A DNA stretch of 64,000 nucleotides from Spirochaetales bacterium. Its GTDB lineage: Bacteria > Spirochaetota > GWE2-31-10 > MWDO01. The first letter of the stretch is position 1, and each line of letters begins with the position of its first letter. Positions 2-38,790 of this stretch are shown piece after piece. The stretch lies in assembly GCA_017540815.1 (NCBI GenBank), contig JAFYAI010000036.1:3637-67636 (forward strand), written 5' to 3'. A program made the position numbers and the translations under genes. The notes beneath the pieces were generated by a model, which saw nothing but the letters and a program-made list of their open reading frames with translations, was not told the origin of the DNA and did not search any database.

Positions 2-3000
2 TCATCGAAGATTACTTTGCTCTGTGGAACTGATACAGCGACTATCTACTATACAACTGACGGAACGACACCGACGACTTCATCGTCAATATATCCTGCA
101 GGCGGTATAGCATTGTTTAGCGGTATGAGTACAGCAGGCAGTAAAACTGTTAAAGCAATCGCTGCTGCGTCAGGGATGACCAACAGTGATGTGTTCAGTG
201 CGACATATAACTTTGATCCGCAGAAAGCGGCTTCTCCGTCATTCAGTCCTGTTGGCGGAACATATTCGGAGAATAAGAATGTAGAATTAACCAATAACGA
301 ATCAAGCGGAGTACTGCAGTATTCATTTACAGGCGATGATTGGACTAATTATACCGGTGCAATTTCTTTAACCGGAAGCAGTTCTGCTGATGTTATCAAA
401 ACGATCTATGCAAAAGTCATCAATGTTGACGGCAAGAGTGAATCTGATGCTGTATCTCAGACATATACGATTGCATATCCGAAGTTGGGTGAAGTATCGA
501 TAACTCCGCCTGCCGGACAGTATGGTACTACACAGTATTATACATTGTCTGCAACAGTTGCAGGTGCAACTATCTATTATACTAAGGATGGAACAACTCC
601 GACTAAGTCCTCGACGAAATATACAACACCGTTTAACTTTGTATCTGACGGTGAATATACTGTTAAGGCATTTGCAGTGGCAGACGGATATAAGGACTCG
701 GATATTGCAGAGTTTGGGCTGTATACAATATCAAGCAGTCAGAACGGAGGCGTGACATTCGATACTGCTAAGACTCTGTATCATGATCCTACAAGTGATA
801 CATGGTCCAATGATGAGAATGATGCTAATCTGAAGTCCGGCAGAACTATATTCTATGGTGCAGGATTTGAGGCAGGCGAGACTTATAAGCTGACATATTC
901 ACAGGGACTGTCTGCTTCAGTAACGATCTATGATAACAGTGAAAAAGCAATAGATAGTACACAGGAAGTTGGCTCTGTTTCATTCACTGCCGCATCTGGA
1001 ACGAAAGAGACGGATAAATACTACTTCGAGTTCAATGTAACCGAAGAGATGGATAATGTCCAGATCTCTATCGCTGTAGACGGTAATGCAATAGAAGTAA
1101 CAAGCATTAATATCACTCCGAACGGAGCATCGATGGATGTCGGTGGTGATGCAGTTACATTTACGGTAACATATCTGCCGGCGAATGCCAACAGCGGCAA
1201 GAGTGTAACATGGACTGTCGGTAACAGTGCTGTGATCTCTAAGAGTGGGACAGGTGATACTGTTACGATTACTGCTCTTGCAGAAGGCACATCGACACTT
1301 ACTGCCACAAGTTCAAACGGTAAAACAAAGAGTGTAACGATCACTGCCGCAACAACAACAACAACTACTACTACTACGACGACGACGACAACTATCGCTC
1401 CTGTAGTCAGTGACACACTCGGTGAAATGCATCCGACATCAGGACCGCTGTCACCTGTGAGCCAAGATTCATGGGGCAGCAGCAAGTATGTGCTTGGTGC
1501 TAATGTTAGCAGCGGCAATACGACATTTGCATTGTATTCTGCTAATGCTACTAAAGTGCTGCTGGAGATCTACGATGCTGCTTACGGCGAGGATGCTAAG
1601 TATGATTATTGGATGACACAGCATTCATCATCTAAGCAGTGGCAGGCAAAACTGCAGGGTGACTTATCCGGCAAGTATTACGCATTCCGAGTTTGGGGAC
1701 CGAACTGGAAGTATGATTCAGGTTGGAAGAGAGGCGGCAGTTCAGTCGGAATGGTCGGAACTCACGACTGTGACTCCAACGGAAACAGATTCAACCCGAA
1801 CAAAGTTGTATTCGATCCGTATGCACGGGAGATAACACATGATCCGAGCAATGCGACAGCGTTGGCATATTCTCCGACTGCACCTGCTAATCCTTACGGG
1901 GCACTGAGTACAGGTGATACATATCGAAACTATGACTCAGGCAAGATCGCACCTAAGGGTATCGTTGTAACAGACAATACAAACTACGGAACTAAACCGG
2001 CTATCCCGCAGAAAGATGCTATCATATATGAGGCACATGTCCGCGGTATAACGAAGCACAGTTCTTCTGCTAATCTGGCAACTCTGCTGTCGAAATACAG
2101 TCAGTTTGGCGATGTAGTCAACATCCCGACAGAATATCAGGGAACATATAAAGGTGCAGCAATGCTCGTGCCATATTTAAAGGCTCTCGGTATCAATACT
2201 ATCGAGTTGCTGCCTGTTCACGAGACGGACAATGATGCTAATCCTGATGACGGTCCCGGCGGCAACTTCTGGGGTTATATGACATTTAACTATTTCGCTC
2301 CGGACAGACGCTACTCCAGTGACAAGACACCGGGCGGACCTACGAAAGAGTTCAAAGAGATGGTTAAGGCATTCCACGATGCCGGAATGGAAGTATATCT
2401 CGATGTGGTATATAACCACACCGGTGAAGGCGGCACATGGCATGGAAGCAGCACAGATCCTAACTTCGATAACGGTAAGCAGTGCACAGTCGTAAGTATG
2501 CGAGGTATCGATAATGCGACATACTATTCATTGGTAAAAGGCTCGAAGTGGGCATATTGGGAGACAACAGGCTGCGGCAACAATATGCAGTGTGACAATG
2601 CTTATGTCCGACAGTTCATACTTGACTCTCTGACATATTGGATAGACACGATGGGTGTAGACGGCTTCCGATTTGACTTGGCTACCACACTCGGACGAGA
2701 GTACAACTCAACAACCGGTAACTGGAACTATAATGCAAGTGCTGCAACACTGACACAGATAGCAGCATTGGGTCAGACAAAGAATGCAGAGATGATTGCA
2801 GAGAGCTGGGACTGCGGAGATAACAGTTATCAGGTCGGCAACTTCCCTGACGGCTGGGCAGGCTGGAACGGTTACTATCGTGACAATATCAGAGGATTTG
2901 TCGGCAATGGTCAGGCAGAAGCTGCTATCTCATATACGACAGGATTGTATGGTGACTTGGATCACTTCGGTGTAAATGAGCCGTCGATCAACTTCATCGT

Positions 3001-6000
3001 TGCACATGACGGATTTACTCTGGCGGATCTGTGTTCATACAGCGGCAGCGGTAACTATTATAATGATAAACTGGCATGGCCGTTTGGTCCGAGTGACGGC
3101 GGCAACGGCGATCAGAACAGTATATCTACTAACATCTATGTAAACGGTTCTGTCGATGAACAGGCGAGCCGAAGACAGCGTGCAAGGAACTATTTCGCAA
3201 TGCAGATGTTCAGTGCAGGTATACCGATGATCGTATACGGTGATGAGTTCGGTCGAACACAGAACGGCAACAACAACCCGTATAACATCGACAGTGTAGC
3301 AACATGGAATAACTATAATATGGTTAATACCGCAAGTCCGCAGGCAGCAAGCACCGGAGGCAGTGGAACATATACCAATATGTTTGGTACATTCGGCAAT
3401 ACTGCCGGTAAGAACGGTAACTTCGACTTTGCGAGATTCGTAATGAATGAGCGTCTGAACAATAACAGTCTCCGACAGGTTAGCGGTGCTGCAGCTCCGA
3501 TGGAGTGGTATTCTACAACCGGAACAAAGGGTTGGGCTGACGAAGGCAATGCTAAGGCGATCATGATTAACGGAAGCAAAGGCGTAGATGGTGCTAAGTA
3601 CTATATGATGATCAATATGAAAGGCGACCAAACTACTTTCACAGTTCCGAAGTCAGATACAGGATCATCTTGGGTTCGTATCGTCGATACAGGCAATTGG
3701 GCTGAGGCAGACTGCAACTATTGGGAGATTACCGATCCTACGGCATACTCATTCAGTGCAGCAACCGAATACGGTGTAGGTCCATATACAGTTGTGATCT
3801 TTAAGCAGGTGGAAGATACACCGACTTGTGCAGCTCCGACTATCAGCGGAACGACTCCGTTTGACGGCAGCACATCGGTAACGATCAGTTCTGCTGACGG
3901 AGCAACAATCTACTATACAACAGACGGTTCTGCTCCGACTGCAAGCAGCACAAGATATACATCGGCTGTAACGATTACAAAGACGACGACATTCAAAGCT
4001 ATCGCTGTTAAGGCAGGGTATAACAACTCTTCAGTGACAACGAAGAAGTTCACTAAGAATGCTCTTACCTGTGCAACGCCTGTTATCAGCGGAACAACAC
4101 CGTTTACAGACAGCACAACTGTCAGTATCAGCTGCTCATCTCCGGCAGGTGCGAGCATCTATTATACGACAGACGGCAGTACACCGACAACATCAAGCAG
4201 TGTTTATTCTTCGCCGTTTACTTTGACAGAAACAAAGACTGTTAAGGCAATAGCTGTTTACAGCGGATATGAAGACTCGGAAGTATCGTCTAAGACATTC
4301 AGTGTTAAATCGGCTGAGTCGTCGAAGAGCGGTGTAATGCTGCAGGGATTCAACTGGGACAGTGCACCGAGAGGCAACAGTTCAAAGTGGTACAGATGGT
4401 ATGGTGTAATGACAGATAATGCTTCTGCAATTAAGAATACATTTGCTTATGTATGGTGTCCTCCGCCAAGCAAAACAGATACTGCTTCGTCAGAAGGATA
4501 TTCCCCGACAGAGCTTAACGATCTCAACAACTGCTATGGTTCAGAGACTCAGTTAAGGGCGATGATCAATGCAATCAGTCCGGCTAAAGCTGTTGCTGAT
4601 ATAGTTATTAATCACAGATCCGGTTCGACAAGCTGGGGTGACTTTGTAAATCCGGATTGGGGTGTAGTAAAGGGTTCTAACTATAAAGCAATCTGTTCTG
4701 ATGATGAAGGATTTAGCGGAGAGCCGTCTTTGATGGGAGCTGTTGCTGCTAATATGCGAGGTAATACAGACTCCGGTGAGCAGTATTCAGCATCACGAGA
4801 TCTTGATCACAAAGCATCATTTGTTCGCGATGGTATCAAGACTTGGATGAAAGATGTTCTCAAAGATGCAGGATTTGTCGGATGGAGATATGACTTTGTA
4901 AAAGGTTATAGTGGTCAGTATGTAGGCGAATATAATGCTTATACGAGTGCAGAGTTCTCAGTCGGCGAGTTCTGGCCAACGCCAACATATAGTTCATCTG
5001 ACTGGGGTAATCAGATTAAGAATTGGGTTGCGGCTACAGCAACAAACGGCGGACAAAAATCCAGAGCGTTTGACTTTGCACTGAAAGGTGCTATGAATAT
5101 GGTATTTGGTTATAATACATCAGGTCAGTCAAACAGCGGATTCGATGCCCTTGCAAGTTCAGATAACCTGTTCATAAGTCAGCCTGCTGATGCAGTCACA
5201 TTCATTGATAACCATGATACAGGTTCAACGCAAAAACATTGGTATCTTGATCCAAATGATATTGGTATCGGTTATACATTGATACTTACTCATCCGGGAT
5301 ATCCGTGTGTCGCTTGGCAGCATTATTTCACTTATGCTGAGAGCGGAAGCAACGGTACAGATGGCGGTGCTCAGTATGTTGCCGGTAATACTGTACCGGG
5401 AACAACATATACATTGCGACAGCATATTGATAACCTGATAGAACTTAGGAAGTCGATTGGTATTGAATATGATTCGGAGAGAACCACTGTTGCATCAACA
5501 TCAGGATATTATGTTGCAGAGATTACAGGAACAAACGGCAGCATACTTGTTGAGATAGGTTCAGGCTGGAGTCCGACAGGTGCGTATGCAGACTATGAGT
5601 TCCAATACAGCGGAACGGACTTTGCTATATGGACTAACGGACAGGCAAGCACGAAGTGTAAAGCACCTGTTATTACATTCAATAACGGAACTTGTACGCT
5701 GTCCTGCAGTAACGCAAGTGCGGCTATCAAATACCGTATAGGCACAAGCGGCAGTTACACAACATATTCGTCACCGTTCAGCGTAAGCGACGGTCAGACA
5801 GTATATGCGTATGCAACGGCTGACGGATTGGAAGACTCGACAACTGTAAACAAGAAATACAGTGCAGGACGAACTCTGACCGTAACTGTTGAAAGCTGGG
5901 TATGGAATGACAGTGCTGTAGTGTTTGCCTGGGTATGGGGAGACTCATCAGCGGGCGAGTGGATTACGGTCAACGGATCAGGCTCTACTGCAACTGTTGT

Positions 6001-6181
6001 TGTTCCTGCTGATACTAACGGATTTAATATGGCAAGATGTCCTGCCGGAACTACAACTCCAAGTTGGACGGCAACAGGCAACAGTGCAGGGCGTATCTAT
6101 AATAAAACAAACGATGTTACTGTTACATCGGGCAACAATTCATACTCAACAACATGGGTAGAATACAATTACACTCCCTGA
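2..6181 (+). CDS. Multidomain amylopullulanase-like enzyme, 5' end outside the window. It carries CHB_HEX_C/Fn3-like repeats, a Big_2 domain and a Thr14 linker. A pullulanase-type GH13 catalytic domain is followed by a second, alpha-amylase-type GH13 domain and a C-terminal starch-binding module (CBM25/26-like)
   Basis: Single ORF with no stop from the window edge. GH13 pullulanase/debranching motifs: YNHTGEG, GVDGFRFDLA, AESWD, FIVAHDGFTL. Second GH13 block: LQGFNWDS, DIVINHRS, GWRYDFVKGY, GEFW, FIDNHD. Repeated TIYYTTDG(T/S)xPT motifs. Ig-like Big_2 stretch (ITPNGASMDVGGDAVTFTV...). W-rich C-terminal domain (WVWNDSAVVFAWVWGD). Confidence 0.85.
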   Translation, partial: SSKITLLCGTDTATIYYTTDGTTPTTSSSIYPAGGIALFSGMSTAGSKTVKAIAAASGMTNSDVFSATYNFDPQKAASPSFSPVGGTYSENKNVELTNNESSGVLQYSFTGDDWTNYTGAISLTGSSSADVIKTIYAKVINVDGKSESDAVSQTYTIAYPKLGEVSITPPAGQYGTTQYYTLSATVAGATIYYTKDGTTPTKSSTKYTTPFNFVSDGEYTVKAFAVADGYKDSDIAEFGLYTISSSQNGGVTFDTAKTLYHDPTSDTWSNDENDANLKSGRTIFYGAGFEAGETYKLTYSQGLSASVTIYDNSEKAIDSTQEVGSVSFTAASGTKETDKYYFEFNVTEEMDNVQISIAVDGNAIEVTSINITPNGASMDVGGDAVTFTVTYLPANANSGKSVTWTVGNSAVISKSGTGDTVTITALAEGTSTLTATSSNGKTKSVTITAATTTTTTTTTTTTTTIAPVVSDTLGEMHPTSGPLSPVSQDSWGSSKYVLGANVSSGNTTFALYSANATKVLLEIYDAAYGEDAKYDYWMTQHSSSKQWQAKLQGDLSGKYYAFRVWGPNWKYDSGWKRGGSSVGMVGTHDCDSNGNRFNPNKVVFDPYAREITHDPSNATALAYSPTAPANPYGALSTGDTYRNYDSGKIAPKGIVVTDNTNYGTKPAIPQKDAIIYEAHVRGITKHSSSANLATLLSKYSQFGDVVNIPTEYQGTYKGAAMLVPYLKALGINTIELLPVHETDNDANPDDGPGGNFWGYMTFNYFAPDRRYSSDKTPGGPTKEFKEMVKAFHDAGMEVYLDVVYNHTGEGGTWHGSSTDPNFDNGKQCTVVSMRGIDNATYYSLVKGSKWAYWETTGCGNNMQCDNAYVRQFILDSLTYWIDTMGVDGFRFDLATTLGREYNSTTGNWNYNASAATLTQIAALGQTKNAEMIAESWDCGDNSYQVGNFPDGWAGWNGYYRDNIRGFVGNGQAEAAISYTTGLYGDLDHFGVNEPSINFIVAHDGFTLADLCSYSGSGNYYNDKLAWPFGPSDGGNGDQNSISTNIYVNGSVDEQASRRQRARNYFAMQMFSAGIPMIVYGDEFGRTQNGNNNPYNIDSVATWNNYNMVNTASPQAASTGGSGTYTNMFGTFGNTAGKNGNFDFARFVMNERLNNNSLRQVSGAAAPMEWYSTTGTKGWADEGNAKAIMINGSKGVDGAKYYMMINMKGDQTTFTVPKSDTGSSWVRIVDTGNWAEADCNYWEITDPTAYSFSAATEYGVGPYTVVIFKQVEDTPTCAAPTISGTTPFDGSTSVTISSADGATIYYTTDGSAPTASSTRYTSAVTITKTTTFKAIAVKAGYNNSSVTTKKFTKNALTCATPVISGTTPFTDSTTVSISCSSPAGASIYYTTDGSTPTTSSSVYSSPFTLTETKTVKAIAVYSGYEDSEVSSKTFSVKSAESSKSGVMLQGFNWDSAPRGNSSKWYRWYGVMTDNASAIKNTFAYVWCPPPSKTDTASSEGYSPTELNDLNNCYGSETQLRAMINAISPAKAVADIVINHRSGSTSWGDFVNPDWGVVKGSNYKAICSDDEGFSGEPSLMGAVAANMRGNTDSGEQYSASRDLDHKASFVRDGIKTWMKDVLKDAGFVGWRYDFVKGYSGQYVGEYNAYTSAEFSVGEFWPTPTYSSSDWGNQIKNWVAATATNGGQKSRAFDFALKGAMNMVFGYNTSGQSNSGFDALASSDNLFISQPADAVTFIDNHDTGSTQKHWYLDPNDIGIGYTLILTHPGYPCVAWQHYFTYAESGSNGTDGGAQYVAGNTVPGTTYTLRQHIDNLIELRKSIGIEYDSERTTVASTSGYYVAEITGTNGSILVEIGSGWSPTGAYADYEFQYSGTDFAIWTNGQASTKCKAPVITFNNGTCTLSCSNASAAIKYRIGTSGSYTTYSSPFSVSDGQTVYAYATADGLEDSTTVNKKYSAGRTLTVTVESWVWNDSAVVFAWVWGDSSAGEWITVNGSGSTATVVVPADTNGFNMARCPAGTTTPSWTATGNSAGRIYNKTNDVTVTSGNNSYSTTWVEYNYTP
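1352..1393 (+). repeat. In-frame trinucleotide tract (ACA/ACT/ACG)14 encoding a Thr14 linker
   Basis: acaacaacaacaactactactactacgacgacgacgacaact is seen directly and translates to 14 consecutive Thr. Confidence 0.8.
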
Positions 6182-6261: not shown

Positions 6262-7104
6262 ATGAAGAAATATATAGGACTTTTTATTGCAGCGGTTATG
6301 GCTTTCGCATTCTGTGCGATCGGATGTGATACTGAAGAGGGAGGATCTTCAAGCAGCAGCGGATCAGGCAGTGGGAACGGGAAAACAAGTATTACCGGTT
6401 TCACAGTAACCCCATCCGGTACAATCGAGATGAATGTTGATGAGACAAAAGATTTTACGATTGCATATCAGCCTGCTAATGCGACTTTCAATCCTGCCGA
6501 TCTTACTTATGATATGGACACATCATATCTGCAGGTCGTGCCTGAGTTAATTAAGTTTTCGTCCGGTTCGATTTCGATAACAGTGAAAGCGATTAAAGCG
6601 GGAACTACAACTGTTAATGCAAGTTTAATCAGCAATCCGAAAATAAAAGGCAGCATAAAATTTGACATCAAAGGAGCAGACTCATCAGGCAGCGGAGATG
6701 AAGGTATTCCTGCTGATGTTACTACATTGGATGTAACAGTAACATGTACTGATTTGACGATGGACAGCATTCATCATGCTGAGTTTTGGTTTGATAAAGG
6801 AAATTATGCAAGCAAAAAACAGGCAGGTTCTCTCAACTGGACAAAAAAGACTGTCCCTCATTCAAAGCTTACCGTTGAATATGAGGGGAGAAACGGAACA
6901 GTGAAATTCCAAATAGTTGATGAAGGGTTGGGAACGGAAATGAAGATGTACTATTATGTGAAACTGTTGAATGAAGATGATGTTTCTGTTGGAACATTAG
7001 AGGATGTTTATCAGGATACACGAGACATAAAACCTGAAACGAAATACACTTTATCATTAGAAAGTAATGGTGTATACGGAGATGCAGCAATAGAACTTAA
7101 CTAA
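6262..7104 (+). CDS. Lipoprotein with a bacterial Ig-like (Big_2-type) domain
   Basis: Signal peptide plus lipobox (FCAIGC). Big_2-like segment ITGFTVTPSGTIEMNVDETKDFTIAY. C-terminal region is paralogous to the next ORF. Confidence 0.5.
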   Translation: MKKYIGLFIAAVMAFAFCAIGCDTEEGGSSSSSGSGSGNGKTSITGFTVTPSGTIEMNVDETKDFTIAYQPANATFNPADLTYDMDTSYLQVVPELIKFSSGSISITVKAIKAGTTTVNASLISNPKIKGSIKFDIKGADSSGSGDEGIPADVTTLDVTVTCTDLTMDSIHHAEFWFDKGNYASKKQAGSLNWTKKTVPHSKLTVEYEGRNGTVKFQIVDEGLGTEMKMYYYVKLLNEDDVSVGTLEDVYQDTRDIKPETKYTLSLESNGVYGDAAIELN

Positions 7105-7133: not shown

Positions 7134-7169
7134 AAAAAGCGATTTTATGATTCATAAAATCGCTTTTTT
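7134..7169 (+). terminator. Palindromic rho-independent terminator
   Basis: aaagcgattttatga|ttcataaaatcgcttt followed by ttt. It overlaps the annotated upstream start of the next ORF, arguing for the internal start at 7192. Confidence 0.65.
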
Positions 7170-7191
7170 AGACTATTATTCGGGGTGCGTA

Positions 7192-7704
7192 ATGAGACAA
7201 AGTATTTGGCGTATAATAGACTTAATAGCTGTGGCAATTATATTATGTATGAGTGCCTGCGATGCCGACTCTGATGTAAGTTCGATTCCGCCATGGGATA
7301 CTGACGGGTCTGACACCTCTGTTATCGAATCAGATATACAGGTTAGAGTGCATTTGGCTGATGTATCAGCTGATGATGTGGCTTTGGCAGAATTGAGATA
7401 TGGCATTGGAAGGTATGAAACAGAATTAACGACTCATTTTGCTGCCGGTATCAGAGTCAGTAAATCACAGCTGACGAAAAGTTTACCATCCGATACACAG
7501 CAGATTGTATCATTCCCGGTGACAGTTTCGATTCCTGACAACACAGCGTGGTACTGCAATGTCAGATTATTAAACTCAGATAATGTATGTATTGGTAATC
7601 TCGCAGAGATGTGGCAGAGTGATACAATCGATGGTGTATACGTCATTGATGTGACATGCGACGGCGTATACGGTGAGATAAATGTTGAGTACAATCCGCG
7701 GTAA
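7192..7704 (+). CDS. Small lipoprotein, paralog of the 6262-7104 product
   Basis: MRQSIWRIIDLIAVAIILCMSAC lipobox. C-terminus (NVRLLNSDNVCIGNL...DGVYGEINVEYNP) aligns with ORF 6262 C-terminus (YVKLLNEDDVSVGTL...NGVYGDAAIELN). Confidence 0.45.
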   Translation: MRQSIWRIIDLIAVAIILCMSACDADSDVSSIPPWDTDGSDTSVIESDIQVRVHLADVSADDVALAELRYGIGRYETELTTHFAAGIRVSKSQLTKSLPSDTQQIVSFPVTVSIPDNTAWYCNVRLLNSDNVCIGNLAEMWQSDTIDGVYVIDVTCDGVYGEINVEYNPR

Positions 7705-9334: not shown

Positions 9335-10408
9335 TTACATTGCAGCCTTGACCTGCCATGCCTTCTGAGTCGGAGTAAGTTTGCCCTGACTCCAAAGGAT
9401 GAGCAGTTCTTTCATATCGGTATTGCTGAATGTTACCTTACCGCCCTTCGGGAATGCAGCCATCTTCTCTTCGATGTCCAGATACTGTTTCGGTATAAGA
9501 CTGCGGAATTCTTTGCTTGTCACGATCTCATCGAGGATCTTGGCCGGTATCATATTGGCATTGTATGCGACTTTATAATACTCCTGAGAAATGCCATTGC
9601 CCTGCGAAACTGCGTCAATGACGATCGTCTTGATCTTCAGATTATTGATAACTGCGAGGCGATACTTATACTCATCGGCAGAAACATACTGACCGTAAGA
9701 ATGGAAATCACGGTTTTTGTCAAATGTGAACCCGATCTTAATCGGGCTGCCGTCCTTGCCTGTTGGAACAGGTTTAACCGCATTATCAGTCTTTGTAAAT
9801 CTCGGAGCAGGCATATTCTGACGCGGAGCGACAGGATTGCCGGAACTTGTTCTCGCCGGAGATGACGGCTTCTGCTGAGCAGCACTTTTGTCGTCAGTTT
9901 GAGCCGGAGTACTTGATTTTGCAGCAACTGTCGGTTGTGCCGATTTAATCGGAGCCGAGTCGGATGGAGTCCTTGTTGCAGTGACTGTATCCTGCTTCGG
10001 AGTATTGTTATCGGCTTCGTTTGTCGGTGCAGCAGTATTCGCAGCCTGTGATTCCTGTTCAGCCGGATTAAGATATGAGTATTTCTTCTGAGGATTGCCT
10101 GCACTGATGACAGGAGTATTGTCTGCCGGAACAGGCTCAGACCGGATAGCTTTATCCTGCACAGGCTGCTCGTTTGACTCATTATGACTCGTGCCGAGTA
10201 TAGCAGCGTGAGTCTGATCGCTGCCGATCTGTTCATCATCATTGATCACAAATCGGGCATCATTATCTGGAGTCGCAGTATACAGCGTATAGCCGGAGTT
10301 GGCCGGTTTCAGCCAGTCAAAGTAGTATATACCTATCAGGGCAACAATACAGCCCAGCACTAATACAATCGAAGTAATTAAGAAAATCAAACCGCCTTTA
10401 GTAGACAT
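9335..10408 (-). CDS. Membrane-anchored protein with an N-terminal TM helix, a long Pro/Thr/Ser/Ala/Gln-rich disordered linker and an uncharacterised C-terminal globular domain
   Basis: AAAGGAG RBS before ATG at 10408 (MSTKGGLIFLITSIVLVLGCIVALIGIYYF). Low-complexity linker. 10-bp gap to the downstream leuA/cimA-like gene. Confidence 0.45.
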   Translation of the reverse strand: MSTKGGLIFLITSIVLVLGCIVALIGIYYFDWLKPANSGYTLYTATPDNDARFVINDDEQIGSDQTHAAILGTSHNESNEQPVQDKAIRSEPVPADNTPVISAGNPQKKYSYLNPAEQESQAANTAAPTNEADNNTPKQDTVTATRTPSDSAPIKSAQPTVAAKSSTPAQTDDKSAAQQKPSSPARTSSGNPVAPRQNMPAPRFTKTDNAVKPVPTGKDGSPIKIGFTFDKNRDFHSYGQYVSADEYKYRLAVINNLKIKTIVIDAVSQGNGISQEYYKVAYNANMIPAKILDEIVTSKEFRSLIPKQYLDIEEKMAAFPKGGKVTFSNTDMKELLILWSQGKLTPTQKAWQVKAAM

Positions 10409-10560
10409 AGTTATCGCTCCTTTATTCTTTAAAAAAAGACTTTCTTTGTAGTCTTTTTGTTTATCGGTGAGATCGGGATTTTTTTTAGTAAAATTTAGCA
10501 TTAGCACAGATCGGGTGTAAAACTTGGCAGCGACACACAAACCGAGTTTGCATTTTTTTG

Positions 10561-10589
10561 TTGTCAGAATAATCTGAATATGTTACAAT
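10561..10589 (+). promoter_or_regulatory. Sigma-70-type promoter for the ATP-grasp fusion gene
   Basis: ttgtca, 17-bp spacer, tacaat; GGGAGG RBS before ATG 10623. Confidence 0.5.
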
Positions 10590-10622
10590 ATCTCTAAACA
10601 GCAAAGCGGGAGGCTTAAACGA

Positions 10623-12860
10623 ATGTACGAATACAAAGGTAAAACATTAGTTATAATTGGGGCTGGATTTCTACAGGTGCCGGTTATCGAGATTGCAAAA
10701 AATCTCGGCATAACAACGATCGTAACCGATATGGACAAAGATGCTCCGGGGATGAAGATAGCCGACTATCCGATCGTGATGTCTACCCGCGATACGGAAG
10801 GCACGGCAGAAGCGATGATAGAGTTCAATCAGACTCATCACATTGACGGTGTAATCACAGTCGGCACTGATATGTCGATGACTGTCGCTGCCGTATCGGA
10901 TGCACTTGATCTGCCGGGTATTCGCTACGAAGATGCCGTTGCCGCGAGCAATAAATTGGTTATGCGCAAGCGTTTGAGAATGTTCGATGTGCCTGAGCCT
11001 GACTTCTATGCGTGCCGAACTATGGAAGATCTTAGGAATGCCGCTGACAAGCTGGGGTATCCATTCGTGCTGAAGCCTGCCGACAATATGGGTGCGAGAG
11101 GCTGCATGAAAGTCGAAGACAGCTCAATGCTGGATTACGCATTCTCAAATGCTAAGAGCGGCAGTATCAATGGTGAGCTGATTGCCGAAGAGTATATGGA
11201 CGGACCTGAGCTGTCAATCGACGCACTTGTATATAACGGTGAGGTGTTTATAACCGGTATCGCAGACCGCATTATCGAGAGAGAGCCGTATTTTATCGAG
11301 ATGGGGCATGTGCTACCGTCTGCTCTGCCACAGAGTGAGACAGACAAGGGTGTGAATGTCTTCATCCGGGGTATCAAGGCTCTCGGTATCACAAACGGTG
11401 CTGCGAAAGGTGATATAAAAGTAACTAAGAATGGCGGTATGGTAGGAGAGATCGCTGCCCGGCTGTCTGGTGGATTTATGTCGGCATGCACATACCCTTA
11501 TGCAACAGGTGTGAGTTCTATCGCCAATGCGATCGATATTGCGTTGGGCTGGCCGCCGCATGACCTGACTCCGAAGACAGACTATGTGTCGATAGAGCAG
11601 GCGATTGTGCCTGAGCCGGGTATCGTCACTGAGATCAGCGGAGTGGAAGAAGCTCTTGCCATTGACGGCGTTAAGAATATCTTCCTTAGAGTTAATGTCG
11701 GCGATGAAGTAGTCGTGCCTCATAACAATGTGCAGAAAGCAGGCAACTTCATTGTGTGCTGTCCGACTTGTGAAGAGGCTTGGGAGACTGTCCGCAAGGT
11801 GCATAACATTCTTAAAGTCACTACTAAGAAAAAGAAACTGACATGGCAACAGATATGCGACAATTCCAGACCGATATATAACGGCACATGCAAAGTTTGT
11901 CCGATATGTGACGGTCGGGGCTGTCGGGGACAAGTGCCGGGTATGGGCGGCATCGGAAACGGTGACTCATTCGTGCGAAATGTCGAAGCATTGAGGAATA
12001 TTACTATTAATTCATCATATATCCATAATGTGCGTGAGCCGGATACATCAGCGGAGTTATTCGGGATAAAGTTCTCACTGCCGGTTGTTGCTGCTCCGAT
12101 TGCCGGGGCGGATATTAACTTCGGCAATAAGATCGCTGAGATTGACTATACTACTGCTCTGACCGAAGGATGCCGCCGTCACGGGAGTTTTGCATTCTTG
12201 GGAGACGGAGCACCGATCGACTTGTTCCTCACGGCGACTGAGGCTATCCGGCAGAATGACGGACACGGCGGTCTGATTATCAAGCCGAGATGTGATACAC
12301 AGCAGATCCGCCGCCGTGTTGATGCTGCAGTATCAGCCGGTGCTCCTATCCTCGGAATGGATGTGGACGGGTGTGCTATCCTGTCTATGAAACTCATCGG
12401 ACAGCCTGTCGAGCCTAAGAGCAGGCAGCAGCTGAAAGAGATTATCGGGATGTCGGATAAGCCGTTTATACTCAAAGGCATTATGACTGTCTCTGATGCA
12501 ATGGCTGCTGTCGAAGTCGGAGCGTCCGGCATAATCGTGGGCAACCACGGCGGACGGGTCAGTCAGTCCCATCCTGCAAGTATTGCTAATCTTGCGGCGA
12601 TTCGTGATGCTGTCGGCGATAAAGTCATGATCATCTATGACGGCGGAGTCCGCACAGGAGAGGATGTATTCAAAGCGATTGCTCTTGGTGCGAATCTTGT
12701 GATGGTTGGGCGGCCGTTCGTTACGGCTGTGCTTGGCGGCGGTGCTGACGGAGTAGGAGTGCTGATAGAGCAGCTGAGGATGCAGCTTGCACGGACAATG
12801 CTTATCGCCGGTACAAACAAGATCAGTGATATAACCAAAGAATGTGTCAGCATAGAGTGA
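10623..12860 (+). CDS. Fusion protein: N-terminal ATP-grasp ligase domain, Cys-rich motif (CKVCPICDGRGC), C-terminal FMN-dependent alpha-hydroxy-acid oxidase/dehydrogenase TIM barrel
   Basis: ATP-grasp hallmarks (LVIIGAG..., EEYMDGPELSID...). C-terminus IIVGNHGGRVSQS...IIYDGGVRTGEDVFKAIALGANLVMVGRPF matches the FMN_dh family (glycolate/lactate oxidase SNHGGRQ...DGGVRRG...GA..V.LGRP). Confidence 0.7.
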   Translation: MYEYKGKTLVIIGAGFLQVPVIEIAKNLGITTIVTDMDKDAPGMKIADYPIVMSTRDTEGTAEAMIEFNQTHHIDGVITVGTDMSMTVAAVSDALDLPGIRYEDAVAASNKLVMRKRLRMFDVPEPDFYACRTMEDLRNAADKLGYPFVLKPADNMGARGCMKVEDSSMLDYAFSNAKSGSINGELIAEEYMDGPELSIDALVYNGEVFITGIADRIIEREPYFIEMGHVLPSALPQSETDKGVNVFIRGIKALGITNGAAKGDIKVTKNGGMVGEIAARLSGGFMSACTYPYATGVSSIANAIDIALGWPPHDLTPKTDYVSIEQAIVPEPGIVTEISGVEEALAIDGVKNIFLRVNVGDEVVVPHNNVQKAGNFIVCCPTCEEAWETVRKVHNILKVTTKKKKLTWQQICDNSRPIYNGTCKVCPICDGRGCRGQVPGMGGIGNGDSFVRNVEALRNITINSSYIHNVREPDTSAELFGIKFSLPVVAAPIAGADINFGNKIAEIDYTTALTEGCRRHGSFAFLGDGAPIDLFLTATEAIRQNDGHGGLIIKPRCDTQQIRRRVDAAVSAGAPILGMDVDGCAILSMKLIGQPVEPKSRQQLKEIIGMSDKPFILKGIMTVSDAMAAVEVGASGIIVGNHGGRVSQSHPASIANLAAIRDAVGDKVMIIYDGGVRTGEDVFKAIALGANLVMVGRPFVTAVLGGGADGVGVLIEQLRMQLARTMLIAGTNKISDITKECVSIE

Positions 12861-12903: not shown

Positions 12904-14400
12904 ATGAAACAAAATATGTTTTTCAAGACGATGTTTGTGATTATATGTGCTGCATTTATCGGCTGTCAGACCGAGACTACAGGCAGCGGCGAGCTGACGG
13001 AGACTGTGCAGGAGACAGCATATTATCACATTATCTTTCATTATAATATCACGGATCAGAGTGTCGATATAGCAGTGCCGACGACCGAGAACTTCGCTGT
13101 CCCGGACTGCACCGATGATCGTATCGGATTTGAGATGCCTGACGGCAGACCTTTCGTTGAGTGGAATGATTCACCTAACGGAAAGGGGACTTCCTATAAA
13201 GCAGGGGAGCTTTTCAACAAACAAAAGAAAGGCACTGTCACAACTCTGTATGCGATCTGGAAAGACGCAGACAATGAACCGTATGATGTTGAGTATGATC
13301 CTAACGGCGGTTCAGGTGAGATGAAGAGGAGCACATTGTTTATCGATCGTTCCAAGCGTCTGCCGAAATGCACATTCAAAGCACCGACGGGCAAGAGATT
13401 TGATTGCTGGAACACAAAATCAGACGGATCTGGTAAGTCATATAAGGACGAGCAGACTGTGACTAATCTTACTGCCAAAGGCAAGACGATTACACTCTAC
13501 GCACAGTGGAAGAACAAGGAGTATTACATAGTCAGGTTTAGTGATGAGCAGCTCGACACGCAGACTGATGATCTTACATTCGACAATGCCAAAGCAGTCA
13601 AACTGCTGCCGACTCTGACCAAATCAGGCTACGCATTCGGCGGATGGTATGACAGTACATCCGACAGCGGTGAACATGTGACGGACACGAACAGTTTCTC
13701 GGATGATGTTACTGTCTATGCCCGTTGGACGGCGAATACTTATACTGTTATATTCGACAAGGATGCAGCTGATGCAGTCGGTTCAATGGATGAACAGAAT
13801 ATGACCTATGGAGAGGGAGCGGCTCTGACTGCCAATGCTTACATAAGAGCCGGCTATCGCTTTCTCGGCTGGCATACTGAGTCCGGAGCATCATCGCCGA
13901 TGTATGCCAATATGCAGCCTGTTGTCAATCTGACATCAGAGGCAGACGGCACTGTGACGCTCTATGCAGTTTGGGAAGAAGCCGATACATATACGATTGT
14001 ATTCAATGCCAACGGCGGCAGCGGTGATATGGATCAGGTGATCTATGTCATCGATGAAGATACCGTTCTGCCGAAGTGTGCATTCAAAGCACCTGCCGGA
14101 CAGAGTTTCAGTCATTGGAATACCGCATACGACGACACCGGGACTTCATACAATAATATGCAGTCTGTGAATGGCATCGCAGAGAAAAATGAGACTGTAA
14201 CCTTGTATGCACAATGGATTGACAGAGCATTCTATATAGCATATCTTAACGATGAAGAACGGCACACTGAGACGGAGGATCTGACATTTGACAAAGTTCA
14301 CGATGTCGAGCTGCCTGTCCCGACCGAGATCGGCTGGTCGTTCCTCGGCTGGTATAAGGATGCAGAGTTCACAGATGGTCCGGTCAGCGGTTGGTTGGCA
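12904..14400 (+). repeat. Dispersed paralogous repeat, partner at about 18802-20300
   Basis: The 5' halves of the two Flg_new lipoprotein genes are about 80-85% identical at DNA level by eye, e.g. ...gtcgatatagcagtgccgacgac...ccggactgcaccgatga...cctgacggcagacctttc... in both. Confidence 0.6.
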
Positions 14401-15468
14401 GGAGATGTGATCGACGACATCACACTGTATGCACATTGGGAGCTTAAGACTATTACTTACACATTCGATCCTCATGGCGGCAGCTGGGGCAGCAGTACTG
14501 ACAGCAAAACAGTCAGCGGCAAGTTCGGCACAACTGTCGGTGATGTGCCTGCCAATCCGACGAGAGAGGGCTACACATTCTCGGGATGGGATATGCCGAT
14601 TCCAGATGTGTTCGGTGACAGCAATCTGACATTCACAGCCGGTTATCTTCCGTATACTTATACAGTAGTATTCGATAGGAATGGCGGTGTCGGAACAATG
14701 TCGAACCAAACAATGTCCTATGATGTGCCAAAAAACCTGACGGCAAATCAATTCTCCAGGACAAATTGGACATTCTGCGGATGGAATACTAAGAGCGACG
14801 GCTCAGGTGAGTTCTATGCCGATAATGCAAGCGTGTCCAATCTTACATCGACCAATGGGGCGACAGTCACGCTTTATGCACTGTGGTCATCGGCGGCTGT
14901 CAAGGATATCGGTTATTTCCGGTACTCCGACGGCAGCTACAGTACTCAATATATCAAAAACAAAACCATTGAAGGCATCGTATTTGAGGTCGGCACTAAA
15001 GTTAAAGTAGTGACTGCTGTTCGTGATTATGCAAAGTGGTGCGCCAAGGATACAGTGCAGAGTGCGACCAATATATCGACAAGCGACTCTGACGGCAGCG
15101 GCAACTGGGCAAAGGTGGCAAGTGCCTGCTCCTGTGCGAGTTGGTATCCGACATCAAGTGACAACGATGCTTTTTATGATGTCGGAGCAAGAGGCTCTAC
15201 AGGAGCATATCTGCCTGCGATAGAGGAACTACAGTCTGTGTATGATAATATAACAGCGATAAACAATGCTTTCAAAATCTGGTACGATGCTGTTCGGTTT
15301 ACTGATTCTATCGCAGGTTCGCTGCCGATTAATTATACATATTGGTCTTCGTCAGCAGTCAGTTCGTCAGTCAACTCCCGGTATCTCGACTTTAAAACAG
15401 GCAATCGAGGAACTGGCAAAAGATCCGAATATCATGATTGCTTCGGAGTCAAGGCATTCGGCAACTGA
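12904..15468 (+). CDS. Surface lipoprotein with multiple Listeria-Bacteroides (Flg_new) repeats and a C-terminal DUF1566 (Lcl C-terminal-like) domain
   Basis: Lipobox AAFIGC. Repeated G(Y/W)xFxGW...T(L/V)YA(Q/V/H)W units. C-terminal GAYLPAIEELQSVY motif typical of DUF1566. Paralog of ORF 18802-21297. Confidence 0.7.
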   Translation: MKQNMFFKTMFVIICAAFIGCQTETTGSGELTETVQETAYYHIIFHYNITDQSVDIAVPTTENFAVPDCTDDRIGFEMPDGRPFVEWNDSPNGKGTSYKAGELFNKQKKGTVTTLYAIWKDADNEPYDVEYDPNGGSGEMKRSTLFIDRSKRLPKCTFKAPTGKRFDCWNTKSDGSGKSYKDEQTVTNLTAKGKTITLYAQWKNKEYYIVRFSDEQLDTQTDDLTFDNAKAVKLLPTLTKSGYAFGGWYDSTSDSGEHVTDTNSFSDDVTVYARWTANTYTVIFDKDAADAVGSMDEQNMTYGEGAALTANAYIRAGYRFLGWHTESGASSPMYANMQPVVNLTSEADGTVTLYAVWEEADTYTIVFNANGGSGDMDQVIYVIDEDTVLPKCAFKAPAGQSFSHWNTAYDDTGTSYNNMQSVNGIAEKNETVTLYAQWIDRAFYIAYLNDEERHTETEDLTFDKVHDVELPVPTEIGWSFLGWYKDAEFTDGPVSGWLAGDVIDDITLYAHWELKTITYTFDPHGGSWGSSTDSKTVSGKFGTTVGDVPANPTREGYTFSGWDMPIPDVFGDSNLTFTAGYLPYTYTVVFDRNGGVGTMSNQTMSYDVPKNLTANQFSRTNWTFCGWNTKSDGSGEFYADNASVSNLTSTNGATVTLYALWSSAAVKDIGYFRYSDGSYSTQYIKNKTIEGIVFEVGTKVKVVTAVRDYAKWCAKDTVQSATNISTSDSDGSGNWAKVASACSCASWYPTSSDNDAFYDVGARGSTGAYLPAIEELQSVYDNITAINNAFKIWYDAVRFTDSIAGSLPINYTYWSSSAVSSSVNSRYLDFKTGNRGTGKRSEYHDCFGVKAFGN

Positions 15469-18801: not shown

Positions 18802-21297
18802 ATGAAACAAATTGTATCATTAGTAATATATATCTTCATCGTGCTGTTAATAGGCTGTCAGACGGAGACCGGTGAGTCCGAGCCTGTCTCGTCAACGATG
18901 CAGACATCGTATTATCACATTGTATTCTATAATACTCTCACCGATGCAAGCGTCGATATAGCAGTGCCGACGACGCAGAACTTTACTTTGCCGGACTGCA
19001 CCGATGACCGTATCAGGTTTGAGATCCCTGACGGCAGACCTTTCATAGAATGGAATATCTCGCCTGATGGAATAGATACTCATTACAAAGCAGGAGATGT
19101 TTTCCCAAAACAGAAGAAGAACTCTGTTACAGTGTTGTATGCGATATTCAAAGAGCCGGCAGCTGTATTCTATTATGTAGAGTATAACATAAACGGCGGC
19201 ACAGGCGGCAGCATGACGAGATCGACATTCGCTGTCGGTAAGTCATATCAGCTGCCGAAATGCACTTTCAAAGCACCGACAGGCAAGCGGTTTGATAAGT
19301 GGACAACCAATGCCGACGGAACGGGCAAGTCATATACCGACGAGCAGTCAATGACCAATCTGGCGACTGCTGCCGGCAGTATAGTGACTCTGTATGCACA
19401 GTGGAAGGTTAAGACTGACTTGTATATCACATATCACGATCCGAAGAATGCGGATAACTCCGACAATCCGACAACATTCCTTAAGACTGATAATGTAACT
19501 CTTACAGGTCTTGCCGGCATCACGGGCTACACATTCGGCGGGTGGTATGACAATGAGACTTGTACCGGCTCTGCGATCACAGGGTGGAGTGCCGGAGATA
19601 AAGACGATGACATTGAGCTGTGGGCTAAGTGGACAGCCAATGAGTATGCCGTAACATTCAACAAGAATGCCGAAGATGCGGTCGGCACTATGGCGGCTCA
19701 GAATATGACTTATGATACAGAGACGGCACTGACTGCCAACGGTTACTCGCTGACAGGGCATCGTTTCCTCGGCTGGCATACTGACAAAGGTGCATCGTCG
19801 GCAAAATATACCAATGAACAAACAGTGAAAAATCTCACTGCGATTAATGGCGGCAGTGTGACGCTGTATGCGATCTGGGAAGAGGCTGATACTTATACGA
19901 TTGCGTTCGCTGCAAACGGCGGCACTCTTACGATGGACAGTGTAACGGTTGTCGTCGATGAGGACTATGTTCTGCCGAAGTGTGCATTCAAAGCACCGTT
20001 AGGTAAGATCTTCGAGAAATGGTCCGACGGTAAAGGTTCATTTTATGATAATATGGCAACTGTTCGTGGACTTGCCGAGAAGGATCAGACGATAACGCTG
20101 ACAGCACAGTGGAAAGACAAAGCCTTCTATGTGATTACACTGCACGATGAGCTTCATCCGAATACAGAGGACCTCACATTCGATGCGGGGGACTATCCTG
20201 CTCTGCCGACTCCGAGTGAGACGGGCTGGACATTCGACGGATGGTGGACAGCCGCTGACGGAGGCGAGGAGATAACATCGTGGACTACCAATGATGATAC
20301 AGAACTTTATGCTCATTGGACACATAACTTGATTAGCTACACATTCCTCCTGTATGGCGGTAAGTGGGATGATGACACCGATTTGCCTAAGACAGTCAGC
20401 GGATATTACGGTGAGGCTGTGAGCGTGCCTGCCGATCCGACTAGGGCAGGCTGGACTTTCGCCGGCTGGAACGGAGCGGTTGACGGGCGGCCAACAACAT
20501 TTGGTGAGAGTAGTCAGGCATTTGCTGCACAGTGGACTTTGCCTTATACTGTTGTCTTCAATGCTAACGGCGGAACCGGCAGTATGAGTAATCAGGATAT
20601 GGTTTACGGTGAGGCGGCACAGCTGTCTGCGAATGCTTTTACCAGATCGGGTTGGACATTCTATGGATGGGATACATCATCTGACGGCGGAGGCACATTA
20701 TATCAGGATCGGCAGAGTGTGTCCAATCTGACAGATAAAGCTAATGGAACTGTCAGACTGTATGCGTTATGGCAGACATCGACACCTGCTGTCGGGCATA
20801 TCTGCTATGATAACGGCGGCAGCAAGATCTACAGCGACAAATATCTGTCAGACAAGACGGTGTTGGGTGTTGTGTTTGCAGTCGGAACTAAGGTGAAGAT
20901 TATCTATCCCGATCAAGAAGATTCCTGTGCTTGGGCCGGCTCTTCTGACACAATCGCATGTACTAATGAGGATGACGGTTCGGTCAATACGAGCAAAGTT
21001 CCCACATCAGTTGCTTATTGGCCGTTTCATTGGGTATACGGTTGCGGAGACGGCTGGTATCTGCCTGCTATTAATGAGCTGATTGCGATTTATAATGTTG
21101 ACGATACGATAAATCCTGTCTTGACATTATTGCATAATGCCGGAATATCAGCTGCCGAATTTTACGGCAATTATTGGTCGTCTACTACTGACGCATCTCA
21201 ATCACATAAATACGCATATTATTTGCAGGGTGGTGGAAAAGGCACTGAGCTAAAAACGAGACAGAGTGCTAAAGTTCGTGCCGTGATGGCATTTTGA
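18802..21297 (+). CDS. Surface lipoprotein with Flg_new repeats and C-terminal DUF1566 domain (paralog of 12904-15468)
   Basis: Lipobox LLIGC. N-terminal about 100 aa about 60% identical to ORF 12904. GWYLPAINELIAIYN DUF1566-like motif. Confidence 0.7.
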   Translation: MKQIVSLVIYIFIVLLIGCQTETGESEPVSSTMQTSYYHIVFYNTLTDASVDIAVPTTQNFTLPDCTDDRIRFEIPDGRPFIEWNISPDGIDTHYKAGDVFPKQKKNSVTVLYAIFKEPAAVFYYVEYNINGGTGGSMTRSTFAVGKSYQLPKCTFKAPTGKRFDKWTTNADGTGKSYTDEQSMTNLATAAGSIVTLYAQWKVKTDLYITYHDPKNADNSDNPTTFLKTDNVTLTGLAGITGYTFGGWYDNETCTGSAITGWSAGDKDDDIELWAKWTANEYAVTFNKNAEDAVGTMAAQNMTYDTETALTANGYSLTGHRFLGWHTDKGASSAKYTNEQTVKNLTAINGGSVTLYAIWEEADTYTIAFAANGGTLTMDSVTVVVDEDYVLPKCAFKAPLGKIFEKWSDGKGSFYDNMATVRGLAEKDQTITLTAQWKDKAFYVITLHDELHPNTEDLTFDAGDYPALPTPSETGWTFDGWWTAADGGEEITSWTTNDDTELYAHWTHNLISYTFLLYGGKWDDDTDLPKTVSGYYGEAVSVPADPTRAGWTFAGWNGAVDGRPTTFGESSQAFAAQWTLPYTVVFNANGGTGSMSNQDMVYGEAAQLSANAFTRSGWTFYGWDTSSDGGGTLYQDRQSVSNLTDKANGTVRLYALWQTSTPAVGHICYDNGGSKIYSDKYLSDKTVLGVVFAVGTKVKIIYPDQEDSCAWAGSSDTIACTNEDDGSVNTSKVPTSVAYWPFHWVYGCGDGWYLPAINELIAIYNVDDTINPVLTLLHNAGISAAEFYGNYWSSTTDASQSHKYAYYLQGGGKGTELKTRQSAKVRAVMAF

Positions 21298-37995: not shown

Positions 37996-38202
37996 ATGAC
38001 AATTACATTAAGAAATGTGGATTATCAATTTCTAAATATTATTCAAAGTCTATTGCCGTTATGTCAAAATGTTCAGATGGAGACAGAAGAAGAAATCCCC
38101 AATGAACTTACTATGCAAGTAATTGCAGACAGTGAATCCGGTAAAAATTTAAGTCCTGTCTATACCAATACATCGGATTTTATGGCGGCATTGAATGCTT
38201 GA
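37996..38202 (+). CDS. DinJ/RelB-like antitoxin
   Basis: C-terminal PNELTMQVIADSESGKNL...DFMAALN resembles the DinJ C-terminus. Overlaps the downstream yafQ-like toxin gene by 8 nt. Confidence 0.55.
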   Translation: MTITLRNVDYQFLNIIQSLLPLCQNVQMETEEEIPNELTMQVIADSESGKNLSPVYTNTSDFMAALNA

Positions 38203-38473: not shown

Positions 38474-38543
38474 TCGATAAAATGAAACAAACCAAAAGAA
38501 ATAATTACGCTTTAATAAAATTCCCAAAATTTTCTCTATAAAT

Positions 38544-38572
38544 TTGACAAAATCCGCTGTGTGGTGTATAAT
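38544..38572 (+). promoter_or_regulatory. Sigma-70-type promoter (TTGACAAAATCC... family) for the caspase-gene islet
   Basis: ttgaca, 17 bp, tataat. Confidence 0.55.
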
Positions 38573-38579
38573 TATAGTA

Positions 38580-38766: not shown

Positions 38767-38790
38767 TTGAGTCTACCCATGGAGCGAGCC

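Follow-up and report, generated by a model that had tools for sequence, protein, structure and literature searches.

The gene at positions 10623..12860 (+) of the window, a stretch of 64,000 nucleotides (nt) from contig JAFYAI010000036.1 of a Spirochaetales bacterium, encodes one polypeptide of 745 amino acids (aa) in which an ATP-grasp ligase is followed by a flavin mononucleotide (FMN) module of the FMN_dh family that carries a cluster of four cysteines (Cys4). This fusion is real and is not the result of mis-assembly. Judged from its domains and residues the N-terminal module belongs to the carboxylate-amine ligases of the ATP-grasp superfamily and is of the L-amino-acid-ligase type, and the C-terminal module is almost certainly an FMN enzyme keeping a His/Arg/Lys/Asp core. 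We tentatively regard the protein as a bifunctional enzyme made from one gene with its own putative promoter, which is a serious possibility and not a settled one. The preliminary description of this DNA had already seen ATP-grasp and FMN_dh domains in one polypeptide, and Pfam, Foldseek and the single 745-aa open reading frame (ORF) agree with it; it also knew of no characterised enzyme with this architecture, and indeed no such enzyme, paper or solved structure was found in literature and PDB searches. The gene, its signals and the parts of its product are the following.

10623..12860, + strand: ATP-grasp/Cys4-FMN_dh fusion gene, 745 aa plus stop, ATG start, a single complete ORF
10561..10589, + strand: putative sigma-70-like promoter, TTGTCA-17-TACAAT with TG extension, 10/12 consensus match, 33 nt 5' of the start codon (a pattern match to the consensus, by scan and direct reading)
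10608..10613, + strand: ribosome-binding site GGGAGG, 9 nt 5' of the ATG, read from the sequence
10623..11828, + strand: ATP-grasp ligase module, residues 1-402 (pre-ATP-grasp, ATP-grasp, LAL_C2), by Pfam, PDB search and Foldseek
11829..11843, + strand: true inter-domain linker, residues 403-407 (KKKLT), poorly conserved (mean pairwise identity 0.21)
11844..11879, + strand: N-terminal helix of the FMN_dh module, residues 408-419, from the AlphaFold2 secondary structure; equals the first helix of stand-alone homologues
11889..11924, + strand: Cys4 motif C423-x2-C426-x2-C429-x4-C434 (CKVCPICDGRGC), residues 423-434, presumed metal or iron-sulfur (Fe-S) site, conserved spacing
11937..11957, + strand: P-G-x-G-G-x-G loop after the Cys motif, residues 439-445 (P439, G440 and G442 invariant, G445 nearly so), common to stand-alone homologues
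11964..12857, + strand: FMN-binding (beta/alpha)8 barrel, residues 448-745, from Pfam FMN_dh, PDB lactate oxidase matches, hhalign and Foldseek

A homologue search returned more than 120 full-length relatives (708-782 aa, 47-99% identity), mostly in metagenome-assembled genomes (MAGs) of Spirochaetota, and at least seven independent contigs carry the identical sequence of 745 aa. The same protein is deposited at NCBI as MBR6199186.1, from a Spirochaetales MAG, under the name 'alpha-hydroxy-acid oxidizing protein'. When the phylogenetic distribution was checked in GTDB species genomes and metagenomes, 79 fusion loci were obtained, each with one continuous ORF; they represent 32 lineages at 70% identity within Spirochaetota and Nitrospinota, the carriers being unclassified Spirochaetota, the Leptospirales group and Nitrospinota. 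The preliminary description had considered that two genes might have been joined in sequencing, and one further locus (L021, 9995-12224) could be quoted in favour of this, as the fusion is broken there into two ORFs (502 and 266 aa). However, that break, found in a single MAG, falls within the barrel and away from the domain boundary. It is probably a frameshift error or a pseudogene rather than a natural two-gene form. Since the identical protein recurs on independent contigs, and full-length homologues and 79 loci with a continuous ORF were found, an artefact of sequencing or assembly is refuted and its probability is practically nil.

In the ligase module three Pfam domains are found in the order pre-ATP-grasp, ATP-grasp and LAL_C2 (PF18130, PF13535 and PF18603), all above their gathering scores: ATPgrasp_N at residues 23-99, ATP-grasp_4 at residues 145-285 (E 6e-14) and LAL_C2, which is typical of L-amino-acid ligases, at residues 329-401 (55.9 bits versus a cut-off of 29.4). 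The best PDB sequence match is the L-amino-acid ligase BL00235 (3vot, E 1.4e-24), and the same structure ranks best in Foldseek with residues 1-400 (template modelling score, TM, 0.86-0.88; root-mean-square deviation 2.8), followed by 4dim, RizA and BacD. The ATP-grasp nature that had been proposed for the N-terminal 400 or so residues was therefore borne out by the domain scan and the 3vot match. Pyruvate carboxylase also appears among the matches, which is taken to reflect only its own ATP-grasp-then-barrel layout. In alignments of 54 and 87 sequences the invariant columns of the ligase are K151, N155-G160, E189, E196, D200, R216, E226, H229, K262, D264, E276, R280 and S282-G284; K151, E189, E196, D264, E276 and R280, invariant in the 87 sequences, align with BL00235, and E226 aligns with a Glu of that enzyme. 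The domain order including LAL_C2 and the positions for ATP/Mg and the catalytic Arg are thus those of L-amino-acid ligases (BL00235, 3vot; RizA, 4wd3; BacD/YwfE, 3vmm), whereas identity to the window module is only 22-24% and none of these enzymes carries a flavin domain. No orthology to BacD, DdaF, PylC, Ddl, PurT or PurK was found, all NCBIfam equivalog scores being far below their cut-offs (PRK02186, the best, 106.7 bits versus 625; BacD 32 versus 850; DdaF 42 versus 840).

The flavin module (residues 408-745) matches Pfam FMN_dh (PF01070) with 204.5 bits versus a cut-off of 24.9 (E 3e-60), the best stretch being residues 601-742, and Foldseek places the C-terminal half on lactate oxidase 6r9v (TM 0.75), in agreement with the PDB sequence search. 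The landmarks of the barrel are K554-P555-R556 at the end of beta3, D580/D582, K618, N641-H642-G-G-R645, D673-G-G-x-R677 and G696-R697-P698. The strings that had first drawn attention to this family, NHGGR (residues 641-645, kept in 119/120 top homologues), DGGVR (673-677) and GRP (696-698), are all present, as is CKVCPICDGRGC at residues 423-434. Both FMN phosphate motifs, D673-G-G-x-R677 (beta7) and G696-R697 (beta8), and the beta5 Lys K618 are invariant. Profile alignment (hhalign) of the fusion C-domains to spinach glycolate oxidase, with a reference sequence whose numbering matches the seven known positions, gave a probability of 100 and an E value of 3e-40. The seven active-site residues of that enzyme are Y24, Y129, D157, R164, K230, H254 and R257. 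Four are kept in the fusion, Asp157 as D582, Lys230 as K618, His254 as H642 and Arg257 as R645, whereas Tyr24 is replaced by C426 and Tyr129 by Arg556, and Arg164 is deleted with loop 4, a lid about 37 residues shorter than that of glycolate oxidase. Moreover, Trp108 of glycolate oxidase is Gly in the fusion barrel. The window protein therefore resembles the FMN 2-hydroxy-acid oxidases and dehydrogenases (1GOX, lactate oxidase, LldD, flavocytochrome b2, mandelate dehydrogenase) in its barrel, FMN phosphate motifs and Asp/Lys/His/Arg set and differs from them at these positions, with the Cys for Tyr24 lying in the Cys4 insertion. Orthology to LldD, lactate oxidase or MftD was not indicated by NCBIfam (118 bits versus 550, 121 versus 645 and 121 versus 470). 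Because three of the seven canonical residues are missing and loop 4 is shortened, the barrel does not look like a classical 2-hydroxy-acid oxidase; the alignment suggests that its substrate pocket is rebuilt around the Cys4 site, which stands in the place of the helix with the substrate-binding Tyr24.

The spacing of the Cys4 motif is kept in 87/87 aligned sequences and in 120/120 top homologues down to 47% identity. This conservation appears to be beyond chance and the motif is plausibly metal-binding, as had been suggested earlier. C426 lies in a 13-residue insertion that also carries C429 and C434 and, because this residue aligns with the active-site Tyr24, a metal held at Cys4 would be a close neighbour of the flavin and of the substrate pocket. 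A PDB search with the Cys segment alone gave no match even at E <= 10, and PDB homologues of the flavin module align only from behind the motif.

The other role proposed for the Cys cluster, that of joining the two domains, did not survive comparison with proteins that have no ligase. When residues 405-745 were searched against 1.84 billion cluster representatives, 182 matches were obtained at E <= 1e-30, and many of the best 150 of these are stand-alone proteins of 335-345 aa that align from their own residue 3-18. They start with a segment equivalent to residues 408-419 and carry the same Cys4 motif about 15-20 residues from their own N-terminus, followed by the P-G-x-G-G loop. Because these stand-alone FMN_dh proteins of about 340 aa have the motif near their own N-terminus, it is best seen as an N-terminal element of the flavin module and not as a linker, the true linker being residues 403-407.

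A Cys4-FMN_dh subfamily is defined in the present analysis by the Cys4 motif with the P-G-x-G-G loop behind it, by K-P-(W/R) where beta3 ends and by a shortened loop 4. The window protein has all of these features, in the Arg variant. The features occur in 50/73 stand-alone cluster representatives of 300-400 aa and the motif in 235/238 close homologues listed for two stand-alone members. Searches seeded with two stand-alone members returned 7865 and 6601 proteins at E <= 1e-20, counts that include all FMN_dh relatives at this threshold. The listed stand-alone carriers belong to Desulfovibrionaceae (e.g. Oleidesulfovibrio alaskensis G20) and Peptostreptococcaceae (Romboutsia, Terrisporobacter), that is, to sulfate reducers and gut clostridia, and are annotated only as 'alpha-hydroxy-acid oxidizing protein' or 'L-lactate oxidase'. 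Stand-alone proteins, such as those of O. alaskensis G20 (P0359) and Romboutsia ilealis (P0415), share with the window C-terminal half the Cys motif, P-G-x-G-G, short loop 4, K-P-x and HGGR at 36-44% identity; they differ in having no ligase module and, in most of them, Trp at the position of Arg556. At the end of beta3 KPW was counted 256 times versus 133 for KPR, with Trp in most stand-alones and Arg556 in the fusions, which would imply different substrates for the two groups.

Because this active-site comparison departs from the oxidase family, the automatic annotation of the subfamily as oxidases is probably wrong. In addition, the window encodes AdhE, which suggests that the host is fermentative; together with the abundance of the Cys4 subfamily in strict anaerobes this argues against an O2-dependent oxidase and for electron exchange via the metal centre or a protein partner. 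For these reasons and those of the active site and loop 4, the word 'oxidase' used in the preliminary description is doubtful. Desulfovibrio vulgaris DVU2784, which the one paper found to touch on this group lists only as an LldD orthologue (PMC4481167), may belong to the same subfamily. As to the surroundings of stand-alone members, the G20 gene (L081:7064-9883) is flanked by a GntR regulator and a TauE/SafE-type exporter, and one cluster representative (P0134, 557 aa) is a Cys4-FMN_dh fused to a HAD-family hydrolase. These contexts are possible clues to substrates, e.g. sulfonated or phosphorylated hydroxy acids.

In a neighbour-joining tree the fusion C-domains form essentially one clade nested among stand-alone Cys4-FMN_dh proteins; the tree is distance-based and midpoint-rooted, and so only indicative. 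Put most simply, this clade suggests that a Cys4-FMN_dh gene was joined once to an ATP-grasp gene and that the fusion has been kept ever since. The mean pairwise identity among 87 sequences is 0.62 for the ligase, 0.51 for the barrel and 0.21 for the linker, and the catalytic residues of both modules are invariant or nearly so, a pattern that indicates selection on both. From residue 395 to the first Cys there are 28-30 residues in 87/87 sequences. Because the linker varies in sequence yet keeps a near-fixed length, the geometry between the domains seems to be constrained.

From the architecture, the conservation, the retained catalytic residues and the ancestry of the Cys motif we infer metal binding, the direction of the redox step, the coupling of the two steps and the kind of substrate as follows. 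The fusion may well be a self-contained enzyme working in two steps, the interconversion of a 2-hydroxy and a 2-oxo acid at a metal-wired flavin domain and the formation of an amide by the ligase. The flavin module would interconvert an (S)-2-hydroxy acid and its 2-oxo acid, with His642 as the base, Arg645 (and probably Arg556) holding the carboxylate and Lys618 stabilising the reduced FMN; Asp582 is also kept. Electrons would pass via the adjacent Cys4 metal centre, probably Fe-S, and not to O2. Following the established mechanism of ATP-grasp enzymes, the ATP-grasp module would phosphorylate a carboxylate to an acyl-phosphate, which is attacked by an amine to give the amide; here K151 and the N155-G160 loop are assigned to ATP, D264 and E276 to Mg, and R280 would be the catalytic Arg. 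In this way the ligase would couple the same acid, or its partner, to an amine. Retention of the carboxylate-binding Arg makes it most likely that the redox step precedes ligation and acts on the acid in its free form. Such an enzyme would yield an N-(2-hydroxy- or 2-oxo-acyl) amine, for which a role as building block of the cell envelope or of a glycan is most plausible. The idea of two steps, oxidation and then ligation or the reverse, had been put forward in the preliminary description and was a reasonable one to draw.

A bolder version of this proposal, which we consider speculative and rather doubtful, is that Cys4 holds an Fe-S cluster directly beside the flavin and marks an unrecognised class of Fe-S flavoenzymes, namely 2-hydroxy-acid:ferredoxin-type oxidoreductases with thousands of members in anaerobes. 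On this view the flavin module of the fusion would supply the ATP-grasp ligase, and the outcome would be a so far undescribed compound, an N-(2-hydroxy/2-oxo-acyl) metabolite or glycan substituent. A pantothenate-like scheme, in which ketopantoate is reduced and then ligated, was set aside on stereochemistry, since pantoate has the D-configuration and this flavoenzyme family is L-specific.

Known systems offer a functional analogy to the proposed enzyme. PylC and PylD ligate and then oxidise, FbiB joins a ligase to an FMN reductase whose target is an enolpyruvyl or lactyl group, and MftD is an FMN_dh enzyme that acts on a peptide-derived amine. Trimethylamine dehydrogenase and 2,4-dienoyl-CoA reductase have an FMN barrel of the old-yellow-enzyme type followed by C-x2-C-x2-C-x11-12-C that binds 4Fe-4S. 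The shared logic is an amide step with flavin redox, or a flavin barrel with a Cys cluster, whereas the folds or families differ, as does the Cys spacing. In particular, the window protein falls outside the trimethylamine dehydrogenase type, as its barrel is FMN_dh and its Cys motif stands N-terminal to the barrel with an x4 spacing.

Several observations weigh against the two-step proposal. With three of the seven canonical residues missing, even the substrate class of the flavin module seems uncertain. These seven conserved residues of the FMN_dh family were mapped on spinach glycolate oxidase, and in a screen of 24 FMN_dh proteins all seven were present in 12/14 active proteins, whereas at least one was absent in 8/10 inactive ones (PMC8491902). 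Sequence alone does not settle between 4Fe-4S, Fe and Zn at the putative Cys4 site. Literature and PDB searches revealed no characterised member of the fusion or of the Cys4-FMN_dh subfamily. The AlphaFold2 model of the fusion (87 homologues) has a mean predicted local distance difference test score of 92.1, but its predicted template modelling score is only 0.70. In addition, the fusion is also found in Nitrospinota and Leptospiraceae. These are aerobes, and the argument from an anaerobic lifestyle is weakened in consequence.

On the same side stands the existence of the ligase with no working flavin module, since the ligase module was seen in four architectures: alone, with a Cys4 barrel, with a decayed barrel and with an unrelated 130-aa tail. 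Alone it is a protein of about 400 aa, 55% identical to the window module (L155). The Brachyspira-type fusion (L019-L023, L146, L148, L153, L167) is full-length (717-726 aa) and its ligase half is 56-59% identical to the window protein, but its barrel is devoid of the Cys motif, of HGGR (NNNKY for NHGGR) and of the DGG phosphate motif. This flavin domain appears decayed and is probably non-catalytic, on an intact ligase. In Treponema and relatives the ligase module has the unrelated tail and no barrel. These ATP-grasp proteins (about 530 aa) have the same Pfam domains and 40-47% identity over about 380 residues to the window ligase, and differ in the tail that replaces the barrel and in their surroundings, which form an operon that is conserved; around the fusion no neighbour is. 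The tail was considered as a possible barrel remnant and rejected (hhalign probability about 1%). The ligase that stands alone, bears the Treponema tail or carries a decayed barrel points to a constant ligase reaction and to an accessory flavin step that was lost in some lineages, where flavin chemistry would be dispensable for the ligase.

Genomic context does not help the proposal either. When neighbours were clustered in 23 GTDB loci and then in the 79 fusion loci, no family was found in more than 4/32 lineages, and no genome was found with both modules as adjacent separate genes. There is no FMN_dh gene within 10 kb of 57 ATP-grasp-only loci, and no ATP-grasp gene adjoins the stand-alone Cys4-FMN_dh genes examined. 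Nothing but the fusion itself links the two activities and, because no neighbour is conserved, the context yields no clue to the substrate. The flanks are by Pfam labels largely housekeeping (MnmG, MnmE, LplA/B, GlpX, LexA, PNPase, MiaA), and in Nitrospinota citryl-CoA lyase/synthetase-like genes are found. Outside Nitrospinota the commonest neighbours are MnmG at -1/-2 (3 lineages), MnmE at +1 (2 lineages) and a 4HBT thioesterase at -1 (3/32), in L007, L011, L012, L013, L017 and metagenome loci; this recurrence may be that of a conserved housekeeping region. A link to tRNA modification through MnmG/MnmE was considered too sparse, being an adjacency in few lineages. Retention in 32 lineages without a conserved partner is what a self-contained function would look like.

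The same evidence can be read in other ways. The two halves might be independent enzymes of one general pathway or regulon, fused for co-expression only and sharing no intermediate. This agrees with the lack of any conserved context or gene pair linking the two families apart from the fusion; however, the fusion appears to have arisen once and was kept in 32 lineages of two phyla with a fixed linker length, and in general experience fusions of unrelated activities are seldom so stable, so that this explanation is unlikely. Alternatively, the flavin/Cys4 module might catalyse no second step and instead serve as a redox sensor or scaffold by which the ligase is regulated or stabilised. The Brachyspira proteins, with a full-length barrel stripped of its motifs on a well-conserved ligase half, would be in keeping with such a role, as would the ligases that occur without any barrel in other lineages. 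Nevertheless, outside Brachyspira D582, K618, H642, R645 and the FMN phosphate motifs are near-invariant in 87-120 sequences, which is hard to explain for a sensor, and the stand-alone homologues, which lack a ligase, are clearly proteins in their own right. We consider such a role distinctly unlikely.

A more conventional explanation would be a classical (S)-2-hydroxy-acid oxidase using O2 joined to an L-amino-acid (dipeptide) ligase, giving a small modified peptide or a secondary metabolite. The strong FMN_dh match, the presence of HGGR and DGG, the top PDB ranks of lactate oxidases and L-amino-acid ligases and the alignment of E226 with the Glu of BL00235 are what would be expected of it. 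Yet the barrel has 4/7 of the canonical oxidase residues and a truncated loop 4, the NCBIfam scores for LldD, lactate oxidase, BacD and DdaF are far below the cut-offs, the host seems to live by fermentation and Cys4 members abound in strict anaerobes. Moreover, no biosynthetic gene cluster surrounds the gene in the 79 loci, whose flanks are largely housekeeping. This conventional explanation seems to us improbable, even more so than a sensor.

For the two-step enzyme that we favour, some hints of glycan chemistry were found. In one locus murB immediately precedes the fusion gene and glmS is close by; in another, a tight operon consists of a polysaccharide pyruvyl transferase, a methyltransferase, the fusion and an uncharacterised 628-aa protein. 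The sister clade of the window ligase module is the Treponema-type ATP-grasp, which belongs to a strongly conserved operon of Treponema/Spirochaetaceae (L024-L080, e.g. L034:4844-15922) with the order spiro-SPASM (TIGR04321), uncharacterised 335-aa protein, CTP_transf_3 cytidylyltransferase, PseG-like/methyltransferase fusion, ATP-grasp, Amidase_3, GerMN, FlaA and RelA_SpoT/TPR. The flagellin glycan of Treponema denticola is reportedly 2-methoxy-4,5,6-trihydroxy-hexanoyl-nonulosonic acid (PMC13439194), in which an amino sugar bears an acyl group derived from an O-methylated 2-hydroxy acid. The operon is a candidate for the synthesis of this acylated and O-methylated nonulosonic acid of Treponema flagellins, and its ATP-grasp ligase and methyltransferase are natural candidates for the enzymes involved. 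The pairing in the fusion of a similar ligase with a 2-hydroxy/2-oxo-acid oxidoreductase hints at glycan chemistry, with low confidence as the end of a chain of steps; against it counts that the link comes from a sister clade and from 2/79 loci. Other genes of the Treponema operon were considered as replacing the barrel and rejected, since hhalign of operon clusters 3, 4 and 5 against the barrel detected no relationship. Within the window only the ATP-grasp module matches the genes of this operon.

Around the fusion gene, the 401-aa gene at 9335..10540 (-) is divergent from it and shares with it an intergenic region of 82 nt; in no other locus was it found to adjoin the fusion. Neither this gene nor those at 6262..7104 (+, 280 aa) and 7147..7704 (+, 185 aa) gave a match in Pfam or NCBIfam. 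The next gene, 43 nt 3' of the fusion, encodes a Listeria-Bacteroides (Flg_new) repeat surface protein (12904..15468, +), and as no terminator-like hairpin was found in the 43-nt gap, the two genes may be co-transcribed. Two more large Flg_new-repeat proteins are encoded at 18802..21297 and 40972..42852 (both +); of the three proteins, one has Lcl_C and one FGE-sulfatase. The ORF at 17..6181 (+), starting 17 nt from the window edge, encodes 2054 aa with an alpha-amylase/pullulanase-type core, CBM48, four CHB_HEX_C_1 and four Fn3_assoc repeats; a surface-located glycoside hydrolase of very large size is its probable product. The gene at 26792..28027 (-) encodes a HipA-family toxin kinase (HipA_C + Couple_hipA). 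The stretches 38000..44000 and 50000..52900 are markedly low in G+C (0.32-0.37 versus about 0.45-0.49 elsewhere); the former holds a 718-aa caspase-like (Peptidase_C14) protein and the latter two minus-strand ORFs (551 and 276 aa) with no family match. Both may be acquired islands.

Both halves of the fusion come from well-studied superfamilies, whereas for the fusion and the Cys4-FMN_dh subfamily no characterised member, paper or solved structure was found in the resources searched. Identification of the metal centre and of the substrate would correct a widespread annotation, and the Cys4 subfamily could reveal how anaerobes run FMN_dh chemistry without oxygen. The retention of the fusion across two phyla with no partner gene points to a compact two-step reaction, possibly in the building of the cell envelope or of glycans. 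If the proposal of an Fe-S flavoenzyme feeding the ligase is true, its N-acyl product would belong to core biology in many members of Spirochaetota and Nitrospinota.

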